Shown here: one piece after another, positions 6,224-61,563 of the stretch
Layout: the number at the start of each line of letters is the position of its first letter
Position numbering within the stretch: position 1 is the first letter of the stretch
Origin: a virus
IMG/VR virus record: IMGVR_UViG_3300035182_000826
Span: 64,001-128,000 of that record
Length of the DNA stretch: 64,000 nucleotides
Reading direction: 5' to 3' (one strand)
Program-made: the position numbers and the translations under genes
The notes under the pieces: generated by a model
Database searches by the model: none
The model's input: the letters and a program-made list of their open reading frames with translations, nothing else
What the model was told of the DNA's origin: nothing

Positions 6224-6727
6224 TCAGTTTACCTTTAGGACATCTTTTGCATACAAACGGGCATAATCTGGGTCTTTCGCAATTGCGGCTTCGCCTTTAG
6301 GAAATGGCGCCTTTAGGACATCTCTCGCGTAGAAATACGCATAATATGAGTCTTTCGCAATTGCGGCTTCGCCTTTAGGAAATGGCGCCTTTAGGACATC
6401 TCTCGCGTACCAATACGCATACTTTGGGTCTTTCGCAATTGCGCCCTCGCCTTTAGGAAATGGCGCCTTTAGGACATCTCTCGCGTACGCAAATGCAAAC
6501 CCTGGGTCTTTCGCAATGGCGGCTTCGCCTTTAGGAAATGGCGCCTTTAGGACCTCTACCGCGTACGCATATGCATACTCTGGGTCTTTCGCAATTGCGT
6601 CCTCCCTCTTCTTCATCTCTTCTGGGTTGTTCTTGTACTTCTCCCAGATGAATTCAGGAACGGAATCATGAGCTGCATCATAATGCAGCAAGGTCTCAGG
6701 TTGTGAATGGTATTTGTACAGATACAT
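6224..6727 (-). CDS. 26-aa tandem-repeat protein, copy A (about 5 repeats)
   Basis: 78-nt repeats encoding AIAKDxxYAxxYAxxVLKAPFPKGEx; near-identical to 11996..12532. Confidence 0.85.
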   Translation of the reverse strand: MYLYKYHSQPETLLHYDAAHDSVPEFIWEKYKNNPEEMKKREDAIAKDPEYAYAYAVEVLKAPFPKGEAAIAKDPGFAFAYARDVLKAPFPKGEGAIAKDPKYAYWYARDVLKAPFPKGEAAIAKDSYYAYFYARDVLKAPFPKGEAAIAKDPDYARLYAKDVLKVN

Positions 6728-6751
6728 TTTAGTTTTCCAACTAGGTTCAGA

Positions 6752-6925
6752 TTAGAAGTCAGCAGCCTCGCCTTTAGGAAATGGCGCCTTTAGGACTTCT
6801 CTCGCGTACAAACGCGCATACCTTGTGTCTTTCGCAATTGCGTCCTCCCTCTTCTTCATCTTTTCTGGGTTCTTCTTGTACTTCTTCCAGATCAATTCAG
6901 GAATAGAGTCATGAGCTGCATTATG
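6752..6925 (-). pseudogene. truncated one-repeat copy of the 26-aa repeat gene
   Basis: HNAAHDSIPELIWKKY...AIAKDTRYARLYAREVLKAPFPKGEAADF; native start is lost. Confidence 0.75.
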
Positions 6926-7506: not shown

Positions 7507-9341
7507 TCTCCTTGAGGGTTTTGAGTTGATTGAGGTGTCTGTGATGATTGGGTTGTCTGTGATGATTGGGGTGTTTGTGATGATTGGGGTGTTTGTGATG
7601 ATTGAGGTGTCTGTGATGATTGGGTTGTCTGTGATGATTGGGTTGTCTGCTTTGTGCCAGCTGTGATAATTGATGTCAGCGCCCGAATTTTCTGTAGGAT
7701 TACTCCAGGGCTGGTAAGTGTTTGCTTCTTAGCACGAAGCGCCGTGACCAACTGAGTCTTTTGGTAATTCAAATTCGCGTCTGGCACTCCAAGCACTGAC
7801 AACAATGATGAGATGGCTTGGAAGTATGTATCAGTTCCGAGCCGCACATCTTCAGTGACAGGCTCAATTGATGTTGACGCTGAAATGTTCAATCTGCTTG
7901 CAAGGCGTCTGAGCAGCATTTCCAACGAGGGGTCATCCTCAATTGACAATGCGACACGGCGAAGGAATGTGTTCACGACAGCTGGGCCACCTTGAACAAC
8001 GAGTTCCTCTGGCAAGCCAAGCTTAACAAGGATAGCTTCAAGCAAACGTTGAACAGCATCTCCGCGGCGATGATTAGCTGCTTCACTCAACTCAAACCCT
8101 GCCTCTTTTCCAAGTGCCTTGTACAAATTGATGAACGCTGTCTTCGCTGCCGCGTGCTGGCGAAGGTATTCAGCACCAGCAGTAACAGAATCGGCTGCAG
8201 CAGCAGTGTTGTAGAAGCGTCCAGGAATTCCAACTAATTGGAAGAACGCAGCAATTTGCTTTGCCATAGGCAACTTCAGACGAGAAACAAAGGCACGACC
8301 CTGAGCGTCAAGCTTCATTGACAGCCCGTCGCGAACGCCATCACTCAAGTCATTCGCTTCTCTGATCAATGATTCCTCAAGTTGCGGTTTTACTTCAAAA
8401 GTTGACTTAGCACCAATTACGTTCTTTTGCTTTGTGAGCTCAGCTGCCATGCGCTCAGCTTCTTCAAGTGATGGGTACTTCACAATTTTTCCTTCACGGG
8501 TGTACAGATACTCTTTCAGGCCATTTACGCCGCCAGAGCTCTTGATTTTTAGAACCCATTTCTTTGCGTTCAGCGCAGAGGCCATATGGGCTTTCACATC
8601 ATCCGATAGAGATTCCTTAACTTTAGCAGGCTTTTTTTCATCTGTTGAAGCTTCTTCCTCTCCTTCCTTCTTTTCCTTCTTCTTTTTCTTCTTGTCGTTT
8701 TCGTCTACTTCATCCTCATCTGATTCTTCATCAGTTTCGTCATCAGCTGTGTTAGGATTTGTTTTGTCGTCGTCATTAGGCGTCAACAACTTGTTTTCAA
8801 TAGGTTCCTCTGGGTTTAGTTCAGCGAGATCAGCACCAGAATCAAATGACGCGGCTGGTGAATCCTTGTCGATAAACGAATCAAGTTCAGGAGTGTCAAT
8901 GTTATCTTCATCACCGCTTTGCGCGACGCTCTGATCACCTTGCTCAGTTGGCCAAACCACATCAACAATGTCGAACTGTGTTGCCATCTGATTGATTGCG
9001 CTTTCGATGTCATTGTCCATGCCAAGCATGTTCGACAATGCCTTCTCAAACTCATCAGCTTCTTGCGCGTTCACATAGATTTCGATGTAGTCACCATTGT
9101 CAGTCTTGACAACGAAACCAACAGAATCAACTTGGTCATTCAGCTCAGCCGCACGCTCAAGATAGTTGTTCACATCAGAACCTGTGACGCTACCATCAGT
9201 GCCATGGTTGATCATGTTCCGCATCAATGAGAATCTAACATCAGACTTATTGGAAGCGGTGTCAGTTGAGCCAGCATCAGTTCCATCAGACATCTTGAGT
9301 TTGGTTTGAATGTGGTTTTCTAGTTCAGAAAGTAATTTCAT
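7503..9341 (-). CDS. acidic hypothetical protein, putative internal head protein
   Basis: 612 aa; starts MKLLSELE; several (L/I/V)xE sites; C-terminal QT(T/P)QSS repeats. Confidence 0.75.
   Translation of the reverse strand: MKLLSELENHIQTKLKMSDGTDAGSTDTASNKSDVRFSLMRNMINHGTDGSVTGSDVNNYLERAAELNDQVDSVGFVVKTDNGDYIEIYVNAQEADEFEKALSNMLGMDNDIESAINQMATQFDIVDVVWPTEQGDQSVAQSGDEDNIDTPELDSFIDKDSPAASFDSGADLAELNPEEPIENKLLTPNDDDKTNPNTADDETDEESDEDEVDENDKKKKKKEKKEGEEEASTDEKKPAKVKESLSDDVKAHMASALNAKKWVLKIKSSGGVNGLKEYLYTREGKIVKYPSLEEAERMAAELTKQKNVIGAKSTFEVKPQLEESLIREANDLSDGVRDGLSMKLDAQGRAFVSRLKLPMAKQIAAFFQLVGIPGRFYNTAAAADSVTAGAEYLRQHAAAKTAFINLYKALGKEAGFELSEAANHRRGDAVQRLLEAILVKLGLPEELVVQGGPAVVNTFLRRVALSIEDDPSLEMLLRRLASRLNISASTSIEPVTEDVRLGTDTYFQAISSLLSVLGVPDANLNYQKTQLVTALRAKKQTLTSPGVILQKIRALTSIITAGTKQTTQSSQTTQSSQTPQSSQTPQSSQTPQSSQTTQSSQTPQSTQNPQGE
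7520..7650 (-). repeat. 18-bp coding tandem repeat, QT(T/P)QSS about 6-7 copies
   Basis: GTGATGATTG(G/A)G... units visible on the + strand. Confidence 0.9.
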
Positions 9342-11605
9342 TTTTTATCCTTGCGTGGATCTGGGTACTTGAGCAACATACGGTGAATGTTTGGGTTTCT
9401 CTTCCGTTTGATGATCTTGGAATTACCAAGGCGCTGTGGAAAAGTTGCGATGTTCGCGCTGGTGGTCATTGACGATGTGTTCATAGGCGCAGCATTTGAG
9501 GTGCTTGGGTCAACACCTGCGAAAGGCGCATCATCTTCCTCAGCGAGCTTTACCACATCACGCAAAAGACCTTCTTTGAGTGCCATTTGATTTTCTCCTG
9601 CGGTTGAGGCATTTAGCAACACGTTCTGCTGAATCACCTTAAACCGTCTGAATAGCTGACTGTTCCCGGCGTACTGCAGACCTAGCATGAACACCAAGTT
9701 CATTGCAGTGACTTTGTCTTCGAATGAAAGCTCAGCCCAATGTGGAACAAGACTGATCAACATATTTAGCTTTTGGTTTCCAATCCCAGACAGTCTCCAG
9801 AATCGATCTAGCATGAACTGATGATTCTTCCAATTAATGGAAACTTGCTTATCCCATGATAGCTCCAAGTGCATACGTCTCCAGAGAATGTCATTCACCT
9901 GAGAAGTCGCTCTCTTGATGATTCTCTTGGCATCCATCGACAATCCAATCTTTGGATCATTGAAATGCCAGATTGCGTAACCCCAGTGGTTCAACTCACT
10001 CATACCAACATCCCACTTCTTAAGATTTGAGAGATTATGGTTCCGCAGCTTTCTCATGCCAATGATGTCATGCTCTTGAATAATGATCATCGAAATGAAT
10101 ACGATTGTGAGGTACGTGCTGATCATCTGAACGCCGTCTTTGCCAGCGAAATCAGCGATTGCGATGTCATTTCTGAGAGTGTTCTTCTTGTGCGTTTTCT
10201 TCTTTGCTTCAGTAAGGCTTTCAAGTGCAAGCGCGTATCCACCAAAGATGACTGCAGCCAATTGAGCTGTGGTGGCCGTTTTTGAAATCTGGTCCCTTAA
10301 CCGTTGAACGCTCTTCTTTGCCTCAGCAAAGATTGTGAGTGTTCTTGCTATCACGTCCTTGCTCAGTGAGACCTCTGTGCCGTCAGAAAGCTTCTTCTTC
10401 AGTGTGCTGGATTTGCTCTTGAACTCAGCCAAGAGGTTTTCAATGTCAAGTCTAGCACGCTCTACGATTGCTAACGCATGCTTCTTTGTGGCTATGATGT
10501 CATTAGCAGTTCTTGACGCATCGGCGAACTGCTGAATAGTTCTGGCTGGAGTGTCACCTTTGAATTGTTCAAGGGCCTTCTTGGCATTGGCTGGCTTCGC
10601 CAGCTCACGGTTTCCAAACAGCTCAGCAAGCTTGATTCGCATTTCACCAATGATGCCACCGCGATCAATAAGATCAGCGTTCTCATCCGTGGTGGTCAGC
10701 CCTCCCTGAACCATGTTCCGATAGTACTGATTGAACTTGTTCATCTCAAGGAAGACACCCTTGTCCACAACCTTGATCTGCTCTCCATTTTCATCGCGTA
10801 GAACATACCCCTCAATAGGGCCTTTGCTGATCGAGTTTGGTTTTTTGGCGTTCAGTGCCTTTAGGAGTTCATCCTTGATTGGCAGTTTGTACTCTTCAAG
10901 AATCTGTCCAATCAATGCTTCTCTGAATTCCTTGAAGGCGTTCCGGCTCTCCTTAGGAATTTTGTTCAGTGATATGGTGAGCGTTTCACCATTTGTCATG
11001 CCCTGCTCATTTTGTGAATTCAGGAACTTTTGGAATTTGGACAGCAAGGTGTCATTGACCTTGATCTTACTTGCGTCAAGTTCAGCTGGTTCAATGAACT
11101 TGACGTCAAGATCCTTATCAACCACCTGAACTTCCTCTCCATCTGAGCTCTCAATTGCTTGAATTGACACGCTTACCTGGCGACCAGTCAACTTTGTCTT
11201 GAGCCTGTCAAAGTTCTCAGCGCTACCTTCAACTGGGCGCAGGAGGGCGACGTAGGACACCGGTTCCACTGAGTATGAAACACTATTAGGCTGTTCACCG
11301 TACAACACCTCGGCCTCACCGGTGTCGCCAGGGGATAGTGTCTCCAACACAATGTCCTTCACTTTTTCAAGAGCGGCATGGGCGGCCCTGAATTGATTGA
11401 AGTCACTAACTGGTGCCCAATCATCTGGACTGTACATCTTCTTGGCGCCATTTCTCTTGCCTTCACGTGACGTGAAGAATTGCCCTTCTTGATCAACGCC
11501 AAACCAGAGTTGAGCGCCATCAAGCTTCTCCTGAATCTGCATCGAGGAGATTTTCTTCACAAGGCTGATGAACTGTTCTGGCTTTAGGTCTTCAATGTGA
11601 ATCAT
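9338..11605 (-). CDS. ligase-fold nucleotidyltransferase-domain protein (DUF6267-like) with long C-terminal region
   Basis: IHIEDL, EKLDG (motif I KxDG), EVLY, IEGYVL, KVVDK; reverse TAAATA at 11626. Confidence 0.6.
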   Translation of the reverse strand: MIHIEDLKPEQFISLVKKISSMQIQEKLDGAQLWFGVDQEGQFFTSREGKRNGAKKMYSPDDWAPVSDFNQFRAAHAALEKVKDIVLETLSPGDTGEAEVLYGEQPNSVSYSVEPVSYVALLRPVEGSAENFDRLKTKLTGRQVSVSIQAIESSDGEEVQVVDKDLDVKFIEPAELDASKIKVNDTLLSKFQKFLNSQNEQGMTNGETLTISLNKIPKESRNAFKEFREALIGQILEEYKLPIKDELLKALNAKKPNSISKGPIEGYVLRDENGEQIKVVDKGVFLEMNKFNQYYRNMVQGGLTTTDENADLIDRGGIIGEMRIKLAELFGNRELAKPANAKKALEQFKGDTPARTIQQFADASRTANDIIATKKHALAIVERARLDIENLLAEFKSKSSTLKKKLSDGTEVSLSKDVIARTLTIFAEAKKSVQRLRDQISKTATTAQLAAVIFGGYALALESLTEAKKKTHKKNTLRNDIAIADFAGKDGVQMISTYLTIVFISMIIIQEHDIIGMRKLRNHNLSNLKKWDVGMSELNHWGYAIWHFNDPKIGLSMDAKRIIKRATSQVNDILWRRMHLELSWDKQVSINWKNHQFMLDRFWRLSGIGNQKLNMLISLVPHWAELSFEDKVTAMNLVFMLGLQYAGNSQLFRRFKVIQQNVLLNASTAGENQMALKEGLLRDVVKLAEEDDAPFAGVDPSTSNAAPMNTSSMTTSANIATFPQRLGNSKIIKRKRNPNIHRMLLKYPDPRKDKK

Positions 11606-11686: not shown

Positions 11687-11996
11687 ATGAACCTGTACTT
11701 CTTACACAGCAATCTAGCATCATTGCTTCATCATGAGGCCGCCCATGAGTCAATTCCTGAGCTCTTTTGGTATGACTACATTTTTGATATTCATGATTTG
11801 GACTGGTTAAAGAAGCGTGAAGGCGCCCTGCTAAGGATCCAAAGTTTGCATACCTATACGCAAGTATTGCGCTCAAAGCACCATTCCCAAAAGGCGAAGC
11901 TGCGATTGCAAAGACCACAACTTATTCAAAAGAGTATGCAAAAAAAGGTTCTTCATGCCGTACCATGATGGTAAACTGATTACGAAGGCGAAGTGA
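11687..11996 (+). pseudogene. frameshifted divergent copy of the 26-aa repeat gene
   Basis: MNLYFLHSNL..LLHHEAAHESIPELFW; shifted frame gives AKDPKFAYLYASIALKAPFPKGEAAIAK; ends DGKLITKAK. Confidence 0.75.
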
Positions 11997-12532
11997 TGTA
12001 TCTGTACAAATACCATTCACAACCTGAGACCTTGCTGCATTATGATGCAGCTCATGATTCCGTTCCTGAATTCATCTGGGAGAAGTACAAGAAGAACCCA
12101 GAAAAGATGAAGATGAAGAAGAGGGAGGACGCAATTGCGAAACACCCAGGGTATGCATTTGTGTACGCGAGAGATGTCCTAAAGGCGCCATTTCCTAAAG
12201 GCGAGGACACAATTGCGAAAGACACAAGGTATGCATTTGCGTACGCGAGAGATGTCCTAAAGGCGCCATTTCCTAAAGGCGAGGGCGCCATTGCGAAAGA
12301 CACAAGGTATGCGTATTTGTATGCGAAAGAGGTCCTAATGGCGCCATTTCCTAAAGGCGAGGGCGCCATTGCGAAAGACCCAGAGTATGCGTATTTGTAC
12401 GCGAGAGATGTCCTAAAGGCGCCATTTCCTAAAGGCGAGGGCGCCATTGCGAAAGACTCATATTATGCGTATTTGTATGCGAAAGATGTCCTAAAGGCAC
12501 CATTTCCTAAAGGCGAGGCTGCTGACTTCTAA
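11996..12532 (+). CDS. 26-aa tandem-repeat protein, copy B (5 repeats)
   Basis: CCTAAAGGCGAG recurs every 78 nt (12194, 12272, ...). Confidence 0.88.
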   Translation: MYLYKYHSQPETLLHYDAAHDSVPEFIWEKYKKNPEKMKMKKREDAIAKHPGYAFVYARDVLKAPFPKGEDTIAKDTRYAFAYARDVLKAPFPKGEGAIAKDTRYAYLYAKEVLMAPFPKGEGAIAKDPEYAYLYARDVLKAPFPKGEGAIAKDSYYAYLYAKDVLKAPFPKGEAADF

Positions 12533-12556
12533 TCTGAACCTAGTTGGAAAACTAAA

Positions 12557-13261
12557 ATGAATCTGTACAAGTACTATTCACAACCTAACACCTTGCTGCA
12601 TTATGATGCAGCTCATGACTCCGTTCCTGAATTGATCTGGAAGAAGTACGAGAACAACCCAGAAAAGATGAAGAAGAGGGAGGACGCAATTGCGAAACAC
12701 CCAGGGTATGCATTTGCGTACGCGAGAGATGTCCTAATGGCGCCATTTCCTAAAGGCGAGGACACAATTGCGAAAGACACAAGGTATGCGTATTTGTATG
12801 CGAAAGAGGTCCTAAAGGCGCCATTTCCTAAAGGCGAAGCCGCAATTGCGAAAGACCCAGAGTATGCGCGTTTGTACGCGAGAGAAGTCCTAAAGGCGCC
12901 ATTTCCTAAAGGCGAGGACGCAATTGCGAAAGATCCAGGGCCTGCATTTGGGTACGCGAGAGATGTCCTAAAGGCACCATTTCCTAAAGGCGAGGCTGCA
13001 ATTGCGAAAGATCCAGAGTATGCGTATTGGTACGCGGTAGATGTCCTAATGGCGCCATTTCCTAAAGGCGAAGCCGCAATTGCGAAAGACCCCATGAAAT
13101 CATATTTGTACGCCAGATTCGTGATTAGGGGCCGTTGGCCTAAAGGTGAAGCCGCGATTGCAAAGAGCCAAACGCAATCACAACTCTACGCAACCTACGT
13201 GCTCCACGGTGACTTTATCCTGAATGGGAAAACAATTTACAAAATGAACAAGGAATCATGA
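12557..13261 (+). CDS. 26-aa tandem-repeat protein, copy C (about 7 repeats, last two divergent)
   Basis: Same repeat with a distinct C-terminal cap. Confidence 0.88.
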   Translation: MNLYKYYSQPNTLLHYDAAHDSVPELIWKKYENNPEKMKKREDAIAKHPGYAFAYARDVLMAPFPKGEDTIAKDTRYAYLYAKEVLKAPFPKGEAAIAKDPEYARLYAREVLKAPFPKGEDAIAKDPGPAFGYARDVLKAPFPKGEAAIAKDPEYAYWYAVDVLMAPFPKGEAAIAKDPMKSYLYARFVIRGRWPKGEAAIAKSQTQSQLYATYVLHGDFILNGKTIYKMNKES

Positions 13262-23901: not shown

Positions 23902-25182
23902 ATGAATCTATTCGAACAAAAGCAATGGGATTCCGGTAAGGAAATCATGCTCGAGGGCCTGGAAGGTACCAAGCGTGACGTTGTTGCAATCCTTATGGAA
24001 AACCAACGTAAGCACCTGATGGAAACAGCCGCAGCTACTGCTGTTGACAGCACTGCAATCGGCAACTTCCAGAAGATCGCAATCCCAATGATCCGCCGTA
24101 TCATCCCTGGCACTCTGTCTACTGACCTGGTTGGTGTTCAGCCAATGCCTGGTCCAGTCAGCCTGGTGTACTCAATGCGTTTCGCCTTTGGTGAATCCGC
24201 TGACGGTAACGGCAGTGCTTCAAACGACATCACCGCTGGTGACGAAGTCTTTGCTAACAACAGCAAGATGAAGCGCTTCTACTCAACCGCTAACGTTGGC
24301 ACAACTGGCTACCCACCAGCTCTGACAGCCACAACTTCAACTGGTCTTGCTGCCAACACAGCTGACTATGAAGGTTACGGCGGTCGTGCAATGCGCCTCT
24401 CAGTGTTGAAGCAAACCATCACTGCTGGCTCACGTAAGTTGCAAGCTCGTTGGACCATGGAAGCTGCTCAAGACATGAGCGCACAACACGGTCTGAACCT
24501 CGAGAACGAACTGACAGCTGCTTTGTCAGCCCAGATCGCTCACGAAATCGACAACGAAATTCTGACTGACCTGTTGGCTCTCGCTGGCACGGCTTCTACC
24601 TATGACTTTGCAGCAGCCCCAGCTGGCTTCGCTCCAAACTTCATCGGTGACCGCTACGCTGAACTTGGTATCCTTGTGAACAAGCTCGCTAACGAAATCG
24701 GTGCTAAGACCCGTAAGGATCCAGGTAACTGGCTCGTCGGTTCACACCTCATCACCTCTATCCTGCAATCAGCATCGAAGTCTGTCTTCGCACCAACCGT
24801 GCAAGGTAACTTCTCTGATCCAACAGGAAACAAGATGGTTGGTGTCCTGAACGGTCGCATCAAGGTCTATTCTTACAACTGGGGTCTGAACGATGCTTGG
24901 TCATTCGACCCAGCTAACGTTGCAACCGCTACCGGTACAACTGGTGAAGACATCCTGATCGGTCTGAAGGGTGGCAACAGCGAACTCGACGCTGGCTACT
25001 TCTACTGCCCATACATCCCATTGGTTTCTTCCAATGTGGTCATGGATGCAAATACCTTCTCACCAGCAGTTTCGCTGATGACCAGATACGGTAAGGCAAC
25101 CTTCACCAACACCTCAACATCCCTCGGCAACAGTGCAGATTATTACGCTCGCGTCCGTGTGATGAACATCAGCTTCAGCTGA
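23902..25182 (+). CDS. major capsid protein (T4 gp23-like)
   Basis: IPMIRRIIP, VGVQPMPGP, SRKLQARWTMEAAQD, EIDNEI, YCPYIPL, LMTRYG. Confidence 0.97.
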   Translation: MNLFEQKQWDSGKEIMLEGLEGTKRDVVAILMENQRKHLMETAAATAVDSTAIGNFQKIAIPMIRRIIPGTLSTDLVGVQPMPGPVSLVYSMRFAFGESADGNGSASNDITAGDEVFANNSKMKRFYSTANVGTTGYPPALTATTSTGLAANTADYEGYGGRAMRLSVLKQTITAGSRKLQARWTMEAAQDMSAQHGLNLENELTAALSAQIAHEIDNEILTDLLALAGTASTYDFAAAPAGFAPNFIGDRYAELGILVNKLANEIGAKTRKDPGNWLVGSHLITSILQSASKSVFAPTVQGNFSDPTGNKMVGVLNGRIKVYSYNWGLNDAWSFDPANVATATGTTGEDILIGLKGGNSELDAGYFYCPYIPLVSSNVVMDANTFSPAVSLMTRYGKATFTNTSTSLGNSADYYARVRVMNISFS

Positions 25183-28364: not shown

Positions 28365-29690
28365 TGCGCATTAGCCGCGCGGGTTCAACGCGGGCCGGCG
28401 ACACGAGGCGACGCCGGCTCACCTCGACTAAGTGCTGTGCATAACTTATTGCCCGCACTGTCCGGTGTGAGCCGGACCTCACCGGTGTCGCCGAGGTGGT
28501 GCTCTATCGCTTAAGGCGAGCTGCACTTAAGCAAAGGTGTCAAATTAGGTGGTGTTCTTTGTGGTAAGGTGTTCTTTGTTTGTGTGCAGTGTGCGCAGAG
28601 CGCATTAGCCGACGAATAGCGGGTTCAATGGATTCTTCAATGGATTCTTCAATGGATTCTTCATTGGAGAGAGGTGATCAGTTCTTCATTGGAGTCAGTC
28701 ATAGTCGCTCTCACAGCGCGTGCTCATAGAGCGCATTAGCCGACGAATAGCGGGTTCAACGGGTTCGTAGGTGACCAGTTCTTCAGGTTCTTCATTGGAG
28801 TGAGGGTGGTGCTCTTAGTGGTGAGGCGTACACAGAGCGCATTAGCCGACGAATAGCGGGTTCAATGGGTTCAATGGGTTCAATGGGTTCAATGGATTCA
28901 ATGGATTCAATGGATTCAATGGATTCAATGGATTCAATGGATTCAATGGATTCAATGGATTCAATGGATTCAATGGATTCAATGGATTCAATGGATTCAA
29001 TGGATTCAATGGATTCTTCATTGGAGTAGGTGGTCAGTTCTTCAGGTTCTTCATTGGAGTAGGTGGTGTTCTTTGTGTTTGTGTGTGGTGCTCATAGAGC
29101 GCATTAGCCGACGAATAGCGGGTTCAATATCATCCGGCGACACGAGGCGACGCCGGCTCACACCGGACAGTACAGCCAATAAGTTATGCATAGCACATAG
29201 CCGGTGTGAGCCGGACCTCACCGGTGTCGCCGAGGCTGTGCTCTATCGCTTATGGCGAACTGCACTTAAGAAATGTGTCAAATTAGGTGGTGTGCTCACA
29301 GTGCGCGCTCATAGAGCGCATTAGCCGACGAATAGCGGGTTCAATGGATTCTTCATTGGAGTAGATGATCAGTTCTTCATTGGAGTGGGGGTCAGTTTTT
29401 GTGGTGAGGCGTTCACAGAGCGCATTAGCCGACAGATAGCGGGTTCAATGGATTCTTCAACAAGTTCTTCATTGGAGTGGGTGGTCAGTTGCTCACAGTG
29501 CAGTGTGCGCAGAGCGCATTAGCCGACGAATAGCGGGTTCAATGGATTCTTCACGCAGTGTGTACACAGAGCGCATTAGCCGAGCACCACCTCGGCGACA
29601 CGAGGCGACGCCGGCTCACCCCGTATTAGCGACTCAATAAGTTATGCACCACATAGGCCCGGCAATTGCCGGGCCACCACCGGCAAAACC
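28365..29690. repeat. composite non-coding repeat locus 1
   Basis: 32-mer AGAGCGCATTAGCCGACGAATAGCGGGTTCAA at 28597, 28728, 28834, 29096, 29313, 29417 (variant), 29511 plus partials; TTCTTCATTGGAG modules; hairpin units at 28395-28496, 29134-29235 and partial at 29590. Confidence 0.95.
28861..29013 (+). repeat. 9-bp tandem repeat x17
   Basis: 3x TTCAATGGG then 14x TTCAATGGA, growing out of the 3' end of a 32-mer. Confidence 0.95.
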
Positions 29691-38196: not shown

Positions 38197-39374
38197 AACT
38201 AGTAAAGCTACAAGAACTGGCGATCAAGCCTGCAAAAATCGATCGTGCGATTGTGTCATCATCAAATGTTGATGCATTAGTTGGTTTTGAGGTTGAACTT
38301 TACGTGCCTTCAGATTCAGCGTTCTATGACGAGCCACCGTCAGAACAAGAGCTCAAAAAGATCAGCTCACCAGAAGAGCTTGAATCTGTTTTAGAGGACT
38401 CTCAAGCTACTGAAAAGAAGTTGAAGACATTGAGCAGACACTACTCGAACTGGGTAGGTGAGCGCATTGAAGAATGGGTTGATGAGAACTGGCGAGACTT
38501 TGATGATGGAGATCAGGAAGAAGCTAGAGCTGACGCTGAACATCACATCCCAGAGAGTGAATACAGCTTTCAGGCATGGATCAAGCAAGAGTTTAATTCA
38601 CTCGGTGAGATGCTTGACCACTATGGATTAGTGTTCAAGGTCAGCGGCACGGGACAAGAGGTACTTGATAACATCAGAGATGAAATCTCACGCTTTCTCA
38701 AAGTAAAGTTCGTGATGCATGGTGACGCTAGTGGAAGTACATGGGCCATTACCAATGACGATTCAGTGAAGGACGATGAGGGTAATGAGACTGATAGTGG
38801 TGAGCATGGCTTCAATGTTGAAATCATCTCACCTCCGCTCAGCCCCGTGGATGCGCTGAGTTATCTGCAAAAGGTGTTCAGATTTGCGAACACGTATCGC
38901 CTTCGTGCCAATCAGTCAACAGGTTTGCACATCAACATTTCATTTCCTAAGGAAATGATGTCTAAACTAGACGTTGTGAAGCTTGCACTGTTCTCTGGGG
39001 ATGACTATCAGTTAAGACGATTTGGGCGTGAGCTCAGCAGGTACGCCTGGTCACAGAAAAAGTACTTGGAAAAAGAGTTCAGTGAAGCTGATCTTAGCAC
39101 ATTGGCATCATCTGCGTCTATGCAGGCTGCAGCCAAAAAGATCATGGACCGAACTGGAAAATACTTCAGCTTCAATTTGAATAAGCTGCAGTATGGATAC
39201 CTGGAATTTAGAACCGCTGGTGGTGTTGATTACATCAACCGGTTCAGTGACATCAGAGACACGGTTGGCAGATACCTACACGCAATGAAAATTTCAATGG
39301 ACCCTGCAGCCGCTCGCAAAGAGTACCTGAAGAAACTTGGTGCACTGGTGCTGAAGGCAAAATCTGAAAAGTGA
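38193..39374 (+). CDS. amidoligase-family (COOH-NH2 ligase) protein
   Basis: GFEVE, DDSV, EIISPPL, NQSTGLHINIS, KY.SFN, YLEFR. Confidence 0.8.
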   Translation: MKLVKLQELAIKPAKIDRAIVSSSNVDALVGFEVELYVPSDSAFYDEPPSEQELKKISSPEELESVLEDSQATEKKLKTLSRHYSNWVGERIEEWVDENWRDFDDGDQEEARADAEHHIPESEYSFQAWIKQEFNSLGEMLDHYGLVFKVSGTGQEVLDNIRDEISRFLKVKFVMHGDASGSTWAITNDDSVKDDEGNETDSGEHGFNVEIISPPLSPVDALSYLQKVFRFANTYRLRANQSTGLHINISFPKEMMSKLDVVKLALFSGDDYQLRRFGRELSRYAWSQKKYLEKEFSEADLSTLASSASMQAAAKKIMDRTGKYFSFNLNKLQYGYLEFRTAGGVDYINRFSDIRDTVGRYLHAMKISMDPAAARKEYLKKLGALVLKAKSEK

Positions 39375-56381: not shown

Positions 56382-57404
56382 ATGGCAGTTGCTCAAGTTT
56401 CTTGGAATCCGAGTCAAGCCCGCTGGGAAGCCACCTTTGGTGGCCGAGTGATCGCTTCGAACCGGAACTTCTCTGGTGGCGTCGACTACCTCCGTCGTGT
56501 GATCGAAGGCGGCTTCAGCCAGAAGGCCAAGAACCTCGGTATCGACAAGATCGAAGTCCTGCAAGCGTCGACTGCGCTGTCGAACGTTGTGAACGGCACG
56601 ATGAACTCCGATGATGAGTTGGCTCCGGAGCCACTGCGCAGTCTGGATGATGAATTCCCGATCAACGAGCGCTTCGCGATCATGACTGACTACGTCGAGA
56701 TGGTCGCTGAAAAGCAACTCGCATCAACGATCGTGACCGGTGAAGGCGGTCTCGGCAAGTCATTCACGGTGATGCGCACGCTGCGAGCCTGCGGCCTGGA
56801 AGACACCGACAAGTACCTCGGTGCCAAGGAAATCGGCTCTTCGTTCGATGGCTTCCGCGGCTACAAGGTCATCAAGGGGTACTCCACCGCGAAGGGTCTG
56901 TACCGCACGCTGTACGAGTATCGGAACCAGATCGTTGTGTTTGACGACTGTGACTCCATCTTGAAGGATGCGAACGCGGTGAACGTGCTCAAGGCTGCCC
57001 TTGACAGCTACGATGTTCGAATCGTGTCGTGGAATGCCGAATCGATGATGGGTGATGATGACCTGCCGCGCAGCTTCGAGTTCACTGGCGGCGTGATCTT
57101 CATCTCGAACCTTCCGAAGTACAAGGTGCCGCAAGCCATTCGCTCTCGTGCCATGTGTGCCGATGTGAGCATGTCCCGCGATGAAGTCATCGAGCGCATG
57201 CAAGTCATCATTGAGTCTGACGAGTTCATGCCGAACTTCTCGATGGAGCATAAGCGTGAAGCCCTCCAGTTCGTGTCTGATCATCGTGATGATCCGCTGA
57301 TCGCTGAACTGAACCTTCGCTCGCTGGTGAACGCGGTCAAGGCCCGTGAAGCCAAGCCGGACTCGTGGGAGCGTCTCGCCCTGTACTCCATGGCGAACTC
57401 CTAA
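56382..57404 (+). CDS. AAA+ ATPase (early paralog)
   Basis: GEGGLGKS, VFDDCDS, LKAALD, FTGGVIFISN, AIRSR; GC-richer codons. Confidence 0.88.
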   Translation: MAVAQVSWNPSQARWEATFGGRVIASNRNFSGGVDYLRRVIEGGFSQKAKNLGIDKIEVLQASTALSNVVNGTMNSDDELAPEPLRSLDDEFPINERFAIMTDYVEMVAEKQLASTIVTGEGGLGKSFTVMRTLRACGLEDTDKYLGAKEIGSSFDGFRGYKVIKGYSTAKGLYRTLYEYRNQIVVFDDCDSILKDANAVNVLKAALDSYDVRIVSWNAESMMGDDDLPRSFEFTGGVIFISNLPKYKVPQAIRSRAMCADVSMSRDEVIERMQVIIESDEFMPNFSMEHKREALQFVSDHRDDPLIAELNLRSLVNAVKAREAKPDSWERLALYSMANS

Positions 57405-57484
57405 TCCCCTTATCAAACTCAAGATTTTGAAAGGTTGATCTGAACTCCTAGTGCCTGACTCCTTTGCAGTTGCCAGGCCCTCTT

Positions 57485-57520
57485 AGGCCCTACAGCGAAA
57501 GTTGTAGGGCCATTTTTTAT
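57485..57520 (+). terminator. intrinsic terminator
   Basis: GGCCCTACAGC-GAAA-GTTGTAGGGCC plus T-tract. Confidence 0.85.
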
Positions 57521-57523
57521 TCT

Positions 57524-58470
57524 GCCTCGGCGACACCGGTGAGGCCCGGCTCACACAGGCTCGCCAAGACATATATCTTTATTGGCCACTATTTTTAAGC
57601 GCACCGGCGTCGCCTCGTGTCGCCGGCTCACGTTGAACCCGCTATTCGTCGGCTAATGCGCTCTGTGTGCGCCTCACCACTATGAACACCACCTCACTCC
57701 AATGAGAACCTGAAGAACTGGTCACCTCGCTCCAATGAAGAACTTGTTGGAGAATCCGTTGAACCCGCTATCTGTCGGCTAATGCGCTCTATGGGCGCTC
57801 ACGCCTCACTTAAACTTTTTGCTAATGATAATGTCAGCTCTTGAAGGTCCTTGACCGTGTCATAGAACCCATTGAACCCGCTATTCGTCGGCTAATGCGC
57901 TCTATGAGCGCACTGTGCACCTCACACAAAGAGCCCCTTCTAATTTGGCGCCTTTCTTAAGTGCAGTTCGCCATAAGCGATAGAGCACCACCTCGGCGAC
58001 ACCGGTGAGGTCCGGCTCACACCGGACCTCACCACCAATAAGTTATGCACAGCACTTGGCCGGTGTGAGCCGGCGTCGCCTCGTGTCGCCGGCTCACGTT
58101 GAACCCGCTATTCGTCGGCTAATGCGCTCTGTGTACGCACACTGTGAGCGACTATGACCAATGAAAACTGATCACCTGCTCCAATGAAGAACTTGTTGGA
58201 GAACTTGTTGGAGAACTTGTTGGAGAGCCCATTGAACCTGCTATTCGTCGGCTAATGCGCTCTGTGTGCGCCTCACCACTAAGAACACTCTTCTAATTTG
58301 ACACTTTCTTAAGTGCGGCACAAATGGCAGTTCGCCATAAGCAATGAGCACAGCCTCGGCGACACCGGTGAGGTCCGGTGTGAGCCGGACCTCACCGCCA
58401 ATAAGTTATGCACAGCACTTGGCCGGTGTGAGCCGGCGTCGCCTCGTGTCGCCGAGGGTGACAGGCGTCA
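57524..58470. repeat. composite non-coding repeat locus 2 (inverted relative to locus 1)
   Basis: Reverse-complement 32-mers at 57633, 57759, 57872, 58099, 58232; hairpin units at about 57525-57626, 57991-58092, 58334-58456; GAGAACTTGTTG about x3. Confidence 0.95.
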
Positions 58471-58505
58471 ATAGAAGATAAATAGCCAATCATTATGGAG
58501 TTCAT

Positions 58506-59153
58506 ATGAAAGTCAAAGATCTATTACAAGAGCTCATTGGCATCAAGAAGTACCAAGGCGTTGACTTGCTGCAGCTTCTCATGAAGCTCCAAAGTGAAAA
58601 GAAGATCAACGTGAAGAATGGGTCTTTCAGTGTCGTAATCATTCCTGAGAATGAAGACTTTGTGTACAGAGTGTGGACACAGGATGGTGGTTGGTTAGAT
58701 TATATGGAGTACTGCATTGACCACCAAGACAATCCACACATCTTGAAAATCAAGAGTCGTGCGAAGAAGATTCCATTCATTTTTCAGAGACCTGAGGGGT
58801 TTGAGACAACACTGTATGTTGTCAAGACTGAGAAACTACAACCTTTGATTTCCAACATTGATCTGTTTGATCAGGTCAGAGTGTTCAGTAATATCGTGCA
58901 AAGAGATTTTCCAACATATGCGATTGTGAATAAGAGAATCAAAGAGCAAACTGGAATCAAGACTGATTTTGATAAGAGCTTCTATGACACGGTCAAGGAC
59001 CTTCAAGAGCACTCACCCTTTCTACTTGACATCTCAACTTCGAATGTGATGCTGCGTGGAACTACTCTGGTTCTCTCTGATCCAATTGCAGAAGTCGGAA
59101 CTAAGGAATTCAAAACAGCTGCTGACATTATCATTAGCAAAAAGTTTAAGTGA
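58506..59153 (+). CDS. protein kinase-like (T7 gp0.7-like)
   Basis: GSFSVV, D.GWLDYMEYC..HQDNPHI, EKL, DISTSNVML, LSDP; TAAATA at 58479. Confidence 0.6.
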   Translation: MKVKDLLQELIGIKKYQGVDLLQLLMKLQSEKKINVKNGSFSVVIIPENEDFVYRVWTQDGGWLDYMEYCIDHQDNPHILKIKSRAKKIPFIFQRPEGFETTLYVVKTEKLQPLISNIDLFDQVRVFSNIVQRDFPTYAIVNKRIKEQTGIKTDFDKSFYDTVKDLQEHSPFLLDISTSNVMLRGTTLVLSDPIAEVGTKEFKTAADIIISKKFK

Positions 59154-59172
59154 GGTGTGAGCGCCCGTTATA

Positions 59173-59199
59173 CGCATTAGCCGACGAATAGCAGGTTCA
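59173..59199 (+). repeat. solo copy of the 32-mer repeat
   Basis: CGCATTAGCCGACGAATAGCAGGTTCA. Confidence 0.9.
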
Positions 59200-59271
59200 C
59201 GATTTAACCCAAAAAGGGTTTTAGCAAATAAACCCATTAAGTTACATTTTCTGTACTTCTAAGGTCAGAAA

Positions 59272-60534
59272 ATGGAAAGAAAACTAGTAACAGTTAGACC
59301 GATCAGCGCGCTTCTGCCAATCCCTGGGGCTGATGCAATTGAAACTGCTGTCATTGACGGGTGGACAGTGGTTGTGAAGAAGGGTGAATTTCAAGTAAAT
59401 GACCTGTGTGTTTACTTTGAGATTGACAGCTTCCTTCCAGACGGCAACCCAGCATGGCAATTCTTGGTTGACAAACAGAGTCAAGAATTTGAGGGTGTCA
59501 GAGGACATCGACTACGCACCATTCGGCTTCGCAAGCAGTTGAGCCAAGGGCTGGCTCTGCCGCTTAGCGCGTTTCCACAAATTAAAGACTCTGTTCCGAA
59601 GTCGTTTGATGTTAAACCTGGCGCGATTCACCAGGTTTATGGTGAATATCTGTCTGACACGGACTTCGCTCCACTTCTAGATGTCAAGAAGTGGGAAGCT
59701 ACTCTGCCAGCACAGCTAGCTGGCCAAGCTGAAGGTCTGTTCCCGTCATTCATCGTGAAGACTGATCAAGAGCGCTGCCAAAACCTCTGTCGTCAAATCT
59801 TCGGTTATGATCCACAAGTTGTGCCGGTTGATTCTTCAAATATCCCCCAAGACGAGATTGATCGACTGCTGAGCACTGGCGAGTTCGTGAAGAATGAGGA
59901 TGGTAGCATTTCAAAATTGCTGCCAGCGCAAGCGTCGCGTAATGATTGGTATGAAGTCACAATCAAGCTTGATGGTTCCTCAATGACTGTCTTCAATGAT
60001 GGTGGGTACTATGTGAATGAAGACGGCACAGATCATGTTGGTGTCTGCAGTCGCAATCTAGAGCTCAAGGACAACGAAGAGAACGCCCAGAACGCGTTCG
60101 TGAAGATGTTCAATGAGAGCGGCCTGAAGGACGCGCTGAAGAAGACTGGACTTGCAGTCGCCGTTCAAGGTGAGCTGATGGGCCCGAACATTCAAGGCAA
60201 TCGTGAAAACCTGAAGGTGCATCAGTTCTTCGTGTTTAACATTCAAGCGCTTGCGCCAGATGTTCAGCAATTCCTGCCTCCACTGCAGCGTCTTGCAGTG
60301 CTTGAAAAGCTCTACGACGCTGGTGTGTCAAGAGAGTTGGTCATGCATGCTCCGATCCTCTTCTCCAATACCACTCTTGAGGCCCTTGGCATTGAAGATA
60401 TCCAATCGCTCTTGGACTTCGCGAATGGTCCTTCACTGAACAATCCTGTTCGCGAAGGCCTGGTTTTCAAGCGGCATGACGGGCTGTTCAGCTTCAAGGC
60501 CATCAGCAATCATTACCTGCTGCAGGAGAAGTGA
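59272..60534 (+). CDS. RNA ligase (DRB0094/Rnl5 family)
   Basis: N-terminal RKLVTVR..IPGADAIE, YFEIDS, KTDQER, KLDGSS, QGELMG, EGLVFK, FKAISN. Confidence 0.9.
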   Translation: MERKLVTVRPISALLPIPGADAIETAVIDGWTVVVKKGEFQVNDLCVYFEIDSFLPDGNPAWQFLVDKQSQEFEGVRGHRLRTIRLRKQLSQGLALPLSAFPQIKDSVPKSFDVKPGAIHQVYGEYLSDTDFAPLLDVKKWEATLPAQLAGQAEGLFPSFIVKTDQERCQNLCRQIFGYDPQVVPVDSSNIPQDEIDRLLSTGEFVKNEDGSISKLLPAQASRNDWYEVTIKLDGSSMTVFNDGGYYVNEDGTDHVGVCSRNLELKDNEENAQNAFVKMFNESGLKDALKKTGLAVAVQGELMGPNIQGNRENLKVHQFFVFNIQALAPDVQQFLPPLQRLAVLEKLYDAGVSRELVMHAPILFSNTTLEALGIEDIQSLLDFANGPSLNNPVREGLVFKRHDGLFSFKAISNHYLLQEK

Positions 60535-60733
60535 TGGCATCATTCAAGTGCACGAGTCCGTGCACTTGAAGAGTTCAGGAAGAGGAACCTTTTCTATCAG
60601 CTTTTTCACAAAAAGCCACATTGGGATAACTGCGTTAGCGCCCAGCGTTACTGGGCGAAAGAGTTCACCAATCTTGGCGGTGAATTTTCAATCACTGAGT
60701 CGTTCCTTCGGGACATTACTATAAGGACAAGCA

Positions 60734-61120
60734 ATGAGCTTTCGTGTAACTCTGAAACCTGACACCTATGTTGTTGGTGATCCACGACAACTTCTAGATC
60801 GCTCCACATGGGAAGAGATCAAGGAAGAGGACAATAGTGACATCATTGAATATGATGGACATGAGTTGTGCTGGCTCGCCGTGAAGCCAGGCACGTTCTA
60901 TGGCGATGAAGAAACTGAGCTTGATCTGATTTCAGGATCAGTGATCATCATGCCAGAAGAACTTGCAGTGAATTCGATTGCGCCATTGACGATTGTGGCA
61001 GATGATGGTCTTCGGGTCATCTTCAAAAATGATGTTCTTGAAGTTGGGAATGAGTCCTTTGACTTTGGCGACTCGTACTTTGATGATGAGGACGCAGACG
61101 ATGAGTCATACGATTTCTGA
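60734..61120 (+). CDS. acidic hypothetical protein
   Basis: TYVVGDP motif; AAGGA RBS. Confidence 0.7.
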   Translation: MSFRVTLKPDTYVVGDPRQLLDRSTWEEIKEEDNSDIIEYDGHELCWLAVKPGTFYGDEETELDLISGSVIIMPEELAVNSIAPLTIVADDGLRVIFKNDVLEVGNESFDFGDSYFDDEDADDESYDF

Positions 61121-61143
61121 CGAGTAAATAGTCCATAATCATC

Positions 61144-61563
61144 TTGGAGACGGTTGTGGACAGAAATACACTCATCAAAGAAGCGTGTGAAGCTGCTCTT
61201 GAAATCAATGAGCAGCTGAACTTTCTCTTAGACTCTTATGACATCTTCAGAGAAGGATTAATGACAACGCCAATCAGCACCTGCCATATCGTTGATGTAA
61301 ACACTGCCATCAAAGAGATTACAGGGCTAACAAAGCTGATGTCGATTGTTCTTCAACAGTGGAAAAATGGAGTCTCTGAGTTTTCAGCCGCCGGTTTGGA
61401 GATCCATGTATTGAATGAGCTTCATGTTCAAATTTTGACACTGTTTAGATTCCTAGAGTTGATGAGTATTCACTCAAGCACTTTCGACTTGGCCCAGTTG
61501 AACGCGGCTGTTGAGAGATTCAGAATCGCAAATAGAGGCCTGAACAAGGTGACGCATGATTAA
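61144..61563 (+). CDS. hypothetical protein
   Basis: TAAATA at 61125; start uncertain. Confidence 0.6.
   Translation: METVVDRNTLIKEACEAALEINEQLNFLLDSYDIFREGLMTTPISTCHIVDVNTAIKEITGLTKLMSIVLQQWKNGVSEFSAAGLEIHVLNELHVQILTLFRFLELMSIHSSTFDLAQLNAAVERFRIANRGLNKVTHD

Follow-up and report, generated by a model that had tools for sequence, protein, structure and literature searches.

An inverted two-piece copy of a kinase-like gene within a repeat array of an uncultured giant myovirus: a probable scar of repeat-primed template switching

In one of the non-coding repeat arrays of an uncultured giant myovirus, the interior of a single array unit was found to consist of two pieces of a neighboring kinase-like gene, joined to each other and placed in inverted orientation. 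This segment is probably a by-product of replication or recombination, i.e., a repeat-primed, microhomology-mediated templated patch, left as a scar in a hyperplastic region similar to those described for the PeSL cassettes of T4-type phages. When a second variant, in which a longer inverted copy of the gene was eroded at the same place, is added to the first, an origin of the segment as a scar of one kind or the other is very likely.

The analyzed stretch of DNA (hereafter referred to as the window; 64,000 nt) corresponds to bases 64001–128000 of a linear, 161,452-bp IMG/VR virus record, whose completeness was estimated with the CheckV tool as 45%. All genome-wide searches described here covered this 161-kb record, i.e., about 45% of the genome, the other ~55% being missing from it. 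As the record carries genes encoding the portal protein, the large terminase, the tail sheath, and the tail tube, it was recognized as a part of the genome of an uncultured giant myovirus, for which the closest phage matches show an amino-acid identity of only about 40%. The structure of the patch is known from one metagenome assembly. The features of the locus, in window coordinates, are as follows:

57486–57511, plus strand: intrinsic terminator after the upstream gene encoding a 343-aa protein (11-pair stem, then a T run); the array starts behind it
57634–57663, plus strand: repeat copy R1 of array C, with 0 mismatches to the 30-mer
57760–57796, plus strand: repeat copy R2 of the CT subtype, including its own tail as far as GGGC
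57793–57838, plus strand: piece 1, reverse complement of 59121–59166 (45/46)
57837–57867, plus strand: piece 2, exact reverse complement of 58980–59010 (codons 159–168)
57868–57902, plus strand: normal unit tail (CCCAT), then repeat copy R3
58100–58262, plus strand: repeat copies R4 (58100–58129) and R5 (58233–58262), with a short module between them
58506–59153, plus strand: kinase-like gene P0001 (215 aa, GC content of 40%), source of both pieces
58980–59010, plus strand: source of piece 2, within the gene
59121–59166, plus strand: source of piece 1, i.e., the 3′ end of the gene and 13 nt of its flank
59170–59199, minus strand: inverted, diverged repeat copy G, the sixth at the locus, 16 nt past the stop codon of the gene
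59216–59235, minus strand: terminator-like hairpin separating copy G from the RNA ligase gene

It had been claimed in the first-pass annotation that a spacer between two repeats of this array is a spliced, inverted copy of the neighboring gene. Both matches and their coordinates turned out to be real. BLAST comparison (100% over 31 nt and 98% over 46 nt, respectively) and a base-by-base display showed that 57837–57867 is the exact reverse complement of 58980–59010 (31/31) and that 57793–57838 is the reverse complement of 59121–59166 (45/46). The two pieces share the GC dinucleotide at 57837–57838, and the 110 nt lying between their sources (59011–59120) are skipped, while the right junction shares GAA (TTC in the sense of the gene) with the usual unit tail, GAA(T/C)CCAT. 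A correction concerns the left border: piece 1 is not bounded by the repeat, and the homology runs on through it, because an inverted repeat copy sits at 59170–59199. The homologous stretch (57760–57838 versus 59121–59199) spans 79 nt, with 89% identity, and reaches 33 nt into the repeat. Piece 1 is thus made of two parts, i.e., a repeat-family tail (57793–57805), which is also present after the gene, and the last 10 codons with the stop codon (57806–57838), and the portion of the patch derived from coding sequence comprises only 57806–57867 (62 nt).

A chance origin of the 31-nt match is excluded, as only ~3e-10 exact 31-mers would be expected in common between the array DNA (~4 kb) and the 161 kb read on both strands. 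In the 77 nt of the patch there is a sole mismatch between the copy and its source (G at 57803 versus A in both strains), which argues for a real, somewhat aged event. The patched unit is 113 nt long, and typical short units measure 94–131 nt.

Microhomology of 2–4 nt is present at all three junctions. The first of them (J1) lies in the shared GGGC (57793–57796), a 4-nt overlap inside ~35 nt of 78% homology, the second (J2) is the GC shared by the two pieces, and the third (J3) is the GAA shared at 57865–57867, where the usual unit tail is resumed and leads in register into the next repeat. As far as GGGC, all 37 positions of copy R2 agree with those of the four further CT-type copies that have this tail, and 8 of the 37 disagree with the inverted copy G; beyond this point the sequence follows the flank of G with one mismatch. 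The exchange at the left junction thus took place where the two sequences share repeat homology. As the homology between the array unit and the end of the gene continues through the repeat copy, it was the repeat that supplied the pairing. Both pieces have their sources on the opposite strand, at a distance of 1.1–1.3 kb downstream.

A nascent strand whose 3′ end lay in R2, or a broken end that was being repaired and stopped there, may have paired with the inverted copy G, whereupon 46 nt would have been copied leftwards into the 3′ end of the kinase-like gene. A slip of 110 nt further along the same template would then have taken place at GC, 31 nt more would have been copied, and at GAA the strand would have switched back to the array, so that the unit ends in register, as it normally does. 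In this way, the interior of one ordinary array unit would have been overwritten by 77 nt, inverted and templated from 1.1–1.3 kb downstream. Such an anatomy bears the marks of microhomology-mediated template switching or of synthesis-dependent repair, in this case with a dispersed repeat as the primer. We infer the order and the number of these switching events, as well as the absence of a selected function of the segment. The 161-kb record contains an ORF for a RecA/UvsX-like recombinase. Repeat-mediated duplication followed by microhomology deletion, one of the two origins put forward in the first-pass annotation, agrees with what was found, since in either location the copied sequence adjoins a repeat copy, microhomology occurs at every junction, and no other gene-derived segment is present in the 161-kb record.

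The 30-mer repeat is present in 28 copies in the record, organized in four arrays (of 10, 7, 5, and 3 copies) and three single copies. The array units are composed of a short module, a long module with a ~100-nt GC-rich hairpin, and microsatellite-like runs, and, besides the large hairpin of the long modules, a short GCGC-type hairpin follows every repeat. The inner inter-repeat segments of the record, which are 64–338 nt long, are all (21/21) covered in 56–100% by other array copies, and the sole long inner stretch without a second copy is a microsatellite run at genome coordinates 92909–92977 (window 28909–28977). When all array DNA was compared by BLAST with the rest of the record, the only matches were further copies of the hairpin module and the kinase-like gene, and an exact 20-mer census of the record revealed no other repeat common to an array and a unique gene. 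The segment is therefore the only gene-derived one in the 161-kb record, a statement to be read as a lower bound, as the record covers only ~45% of the genome.

Microsatellite-like runs were noted at window positions 28909–28977 and 58190–58225 and at ~24040–24119 of the record (G000:C1). They have periods of 9, 12, and 13 nt, repeat the 5′ edge of the 30-mer in up to ~14 copies, and indicate frequent slippage within the units. In the hairpin modules at 58003–58033 and 58367–58397, the centers are exactly complementary to each other (31 nt), i.e., the loop is flipped in copies that are otherwise co-oriented; exchange at short inverted repeats is therefore a recurring process in this lineage.

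A related 17-mer, differing from the repeat core in two bases, was identified in three relatives, i.e., G001, G003, and G004 (loci L013–L024). It is present there in 4–6 copies per genome, tens of kb apart and in both orientations, and the reversed control pattern gave 0 hits. The sites in the relatives are often located directly after a terminator hairpin and are then followed by a TATAAC-like box. About half of them lie 39–98 nt ahead of a co-oriented ORF, and the others, like copy G, face the 3′ end of a convergent ORF 24–30 nt away. The tail of copy G is of the TATAAC type, which is also found in copy E (genome position 8704) and in the relatives. Copies E and G may conceivably be two halves of one ancestral site; the tail common to them resembles the consensus of the dispersed sites in the relatives. 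It is also worth mentioning that the minus-strand gene beside the single copy E (record 8704–9438, G000:C1) has a homologue in the metagenomic relative L028 (5505–6551), ~800 nt from the kinase-like gene of that contig. In the genome described here these two genes are separated by 114 kb, and a TATAAC-type repeat copy adjoins each of them on the 3′ side.

The gene content around the array was compared with that of two metagenomic relatives (L027 and L028), in which the upstream 343-aa protein is 56–60% identical at the amino-acid level. The gene order in both of them is o56373–o60734–o61144–kinase homologues, the last two genes overlapping by 4 nt, and in the genome analyzed here it is o56373–terminator–array C–kinase-like gene–G–RNA ligase–o60734–o61144–o61556. 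This lineage has therefore undergone a relocation of the kinase-like gene, and the synteny breaks with respect to L027 and L028 fall exactly at array C and copy G. The region 57405–61563 of the window is hyperplastic, with the RNA ligase gene and array C inserted between genes that are adjacent in L027 and L028. The RNA ligase loci of nine further relatives (L004–L012) have neither the kinase-like gene nor the repeat at this place and therefore give no ancestral state. A foreign origin of the gene, considered on account of its low GC content (40%), was rejected, as its former neighbors, o61144 and o60734, are also low in GC (43–45%).

A second strain is represented by contig L025 (99.5% identity, 9 mismatches), which confirms the order gene–G–ligase and ends short of the patch. 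It differs at 58980, the last base of the 31-nt source (F159L), and at 59193, where it has the canonical C in copy G. The 7 other differences are all located in the RNA ligase gene, and each of them changes an amino acid. The megablast search of 57400–59300 against phage records gave no match, and exact-pattern scans of viral and metagenome contigs with the repeat core and a 27-nt piece of the gene yielded nothing usable, so that these contig searches revealed no close relative, either carrying or lacking the patch. The single metagenome match to the repeat core (L026) was discarded as unrelated, being a GC-rich contig without other similarity.

The designation of P0001 as a kinase, adopted from the first-pass annotation, holds at the level of predicted fold and motifs. 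No family was assigned to this protein in the profile searches of Pfam, PHROGs, and PDB (in Pfam and PHROGs, no kinase family was matched), and a word-based protein search found only P0001 itself, while an exhaustive library search revealed 414 relatives. In all 52 aligned homologues, residues D175, N180, and D192 are invariant, and they are present in P0001, in a D-x4-N motif followed by D-P. These residues are the predicted Asp and Asn of the catalytic loop and the predicted metal-binding Asp, respectively. Position 55, the putative site of the ATP-anchoring Lys in strand 3, is occupied by K in 45/52 and by R in 7/52 homologues, and P0001 has R. As the single-sequence model was useless (pLDDT of 31), an alignment-based structure model (pLDDT of 89.7) was used, for which Foldseek indicated aminoglycoside phosphotransferases and protein kinases (E-value of 1e-4, probability of 0.99). 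The comparison with MPS1 gave a Z score of 8.5, just above the noise guide of the tool (~8), over 122 residues at 3.4 Å, and the top 50 structure matches were all kinases or pseudokinases. A bilobal kinase fold is thus predicted for P0001 on the basis of the model. Homologues of P0001 with 3–5 tandem copies of the domain were also found, i.e., P0003, P0005, P0010, P0016, and P0062 (600–1769 aa).

The terminator in front of array C closes the upstream gene, and the kinase-like gene must therefore be transcribed from within or behind the array. A promoter-like site of the sigma-70 type was not found in any repeat copy, and by eye TTGAAC lies only 15 nt from TAATGC. An ATAAATA motif resembling T4 late promoters is located at 58478–58484, 22 nt upstream of the start codon of the kinase-like gene (CTAAATA is similarly placed in L013), and it could drive this gene alone, from downstream of the patch. 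The Rfam search gave two sub-threshold hits only. The weak hit to SdsR_RyeB (27 bits, with a gathering score of 38), at 57418–57518, overlaps the terminator of the upstream gene and probably reflects nothing but the hairpin.

The junctions may also be explained by a multi-step scar, in which a whole inverted copy of the kinase-like gene located behind R2 was eroded by two microhomology deletions, i.e., an internal one of 110 nt and another of ~475 nt, which removed the rest. The gene would have first lain, or would have been duplicated, in the opposite orientation behind R2 during its relocation. The demonstrable movement of the gene relative to L027 and L028 fits this history, deletions between short direct microhomologies are common, and the junction between the repeat tail and the stop codon is alike at both places, and hence it was formed once and then duplicated. 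Such a course of events is nevertheless unlikely, because at least three separate events must happen to restore the normal length and tail of the unit, and an extra conversion step is needed, as the head of R2 belongs to another repeat subtype than G. Much less probable still is an assembly or amplification artefact, i.e., a chimeric molecule (arising, e.g., in multiple-displacement amplification) that was built into the contig. Inverted joins with 2–4 nt of microhomology are typical of amplification chimeras, the record is a metagenome-derived contig, and arrays of exact 30-mers are hard to assemble. However, the register of the array unit is exactly resumed across the three junctions, the stretches shared at the junctions (2–4 nt) are far below the word size of any assembler, and one base distinguishes the copy from its source, a difference that would not be expected in a fresh chimera.

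Spacer-like capture, the other origin put forward in the first-pass annotation, would mean that gene DNA was taken up between repeats by a CRISPR-like or another programmed mechanism and gives rise to a guide RNA; this reading did not withstand the comparison and is extremely unlikely. The likeness is confined to the superficial layout, in which a 30–32-nt repeat lies on either side of a sequence matching a nearby gene. CRISPR arrays also consist of ~30-nt repeats with other sequences between them, but their spacers are unique and of near-constant length, whereas all 21 inner segments of the present arrays are shared modules, devoid of uniqueness, and vary from 64 to 338 nt. Moreover, a CRISPR spacer corresponds to a single contiguous protospacer, with the homology stopping at the repeat, and here a two-piece mosaic is continuous with the repeat, into which its homology runs. 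CRISPR arrays are accompanied by cas genes; profiles of Cas1, reverse transcriptase, resolvase, and tyrosine integrase gave no match in the 161-kb record (~55% of the genome being missing from it), while control genomes did match. Neither Cas1, nor reverse transcriptase, nor anything similar was found among the neighboring ORFs, which encode an RNA ligase, P-loop kinases, and a DNA-ligase-like protein. A scar origin is compatible with a present function of the patch, and a functional antisense or dsRNA element, which we regard as improbable, would consist of array transcripts with two stretches (46 and 31 nt) able to pair with the kinase-like mRNA in its 3′ part. Such an element might work in trans or, provided that the mRNA begins upstream of 57790, in cis, with the duplex lowering expression, e.g., through RNase III, and in another version the inverted arms would let the 1.3-kb segment flip at the DNA level. 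Consistent with this are the perfect complementarity over 31 bp and the near-perfect one over 46 bp (45/46), the strong upstream terminator, which places the start of transcription of the kinase-like gene within or behind the array, and the position of copy G, which points into the 3′ end of the gene, as do the sites of the relatives facing convergent ORFs. On the other hand, the segment is unique in 161 kb, it would target the 3′ end and an internal helix and not the ribosome-binding site, no sigma-70-type promoter was found in the repeats, and the ATAAATA motif could drive the gene alone, downstream of the patch. A selected antisense, dsRNA, or inversion role of the patch seems doubtful. It is similarly hard to credit that the patch has been kept because it is functional, with plus-strand array RNA, complementary over 77 nt, serving as an antisense or self-pairing switch that limits an accessory kinase. 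Should this be true, a single step of repeat-primed copying would have given rise to the switch, and this would constitute a route for arrays to make regulators of their neighbors. In a related and equally improbable reading, the patch is the fossil of a strand started at copy G, and it would then show the direction in which this conserved site fires.

The nearest described counterparts of the repeats analyzed here are the PeSL (promoter-early stem-loop) cassettes of the T4-type phages RB49 and phi1 (Arbiol et al. 2010, PMC2839356). These are short, repeated, non-coding cassettes with GC-rich stem-loops, concentrated in hyperplastic regions beside accessory genes, which contain a consensus sigma-70 promoter and are favored by recombination, through which the flanked gene is moved, deleted, or inserted; the exchanges described so far occur between direct copies (deletion, mini-circles) (PMC2839356). 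The repeats of the giant myovirus resemble them in having stem-loops, in their hyperplastic location, and in their role in gene shuffling, as they bracket the relocated gene at the synteny breaks with L027 and L028. They differ from PeSL in the lack of a detectable sigma-70 promoter, in being arranged in tandem, as arrays with microsatellite-like linkers and up to 10 units, and in that the related 17-mer is kept in the relatives as single dispersed sites in both orientations. Furthermore, the event itself produced an inverted mosaic patch and was not an exchange between direct copies.

Templated changes of this type are known from quasipalindrome mutagenesis in T4 and E. coli and from microhomology-mediated break-induced replication (FoSTeS/MMBIR). 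As in those systems, the patch was templated from nearby sequence, is inverted and replaces the original sequence, and it has several junctions, each with 2–4 nt of microhomology (GGGC, GC, GAA). Two differences are that the first switch was guided by a diverged repeat of ~35 nt, and not by microhomology alone, and that the event is a fixed variant in a phage genome and not a laboratory mutation.

The interpretation of the patch as repeat-primed removes a tempting, but in all probability wrong, reading of such loci as Cas-less spacer arrays capturing gene DNA. In its place, it offers a clean example from nature of giant phage genomes in which dispersed, presumably regulatory repeats may serve as primers of template switching and mark breakpoints at which genes were relocated. 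The concept of modular shuffling, known from PeSL, is thereby broadened to include another repeat family, which is not of the sigma-70 type. The three patch junctions constitute a specific marker for this strain, and the inverted arms around the gene predict DNA inversion isomers and RNA duplexes.

The record also harbors repeats with a period of 78 nt, which are common, in inverted orientation, to window regions 6267–6903 and 11996–13092, located 5 kb apart, and a third region of this kind occurs at 38462–38825 of the record (G000:C1). These regions are probably paralogous genes encoding repeat proteins.
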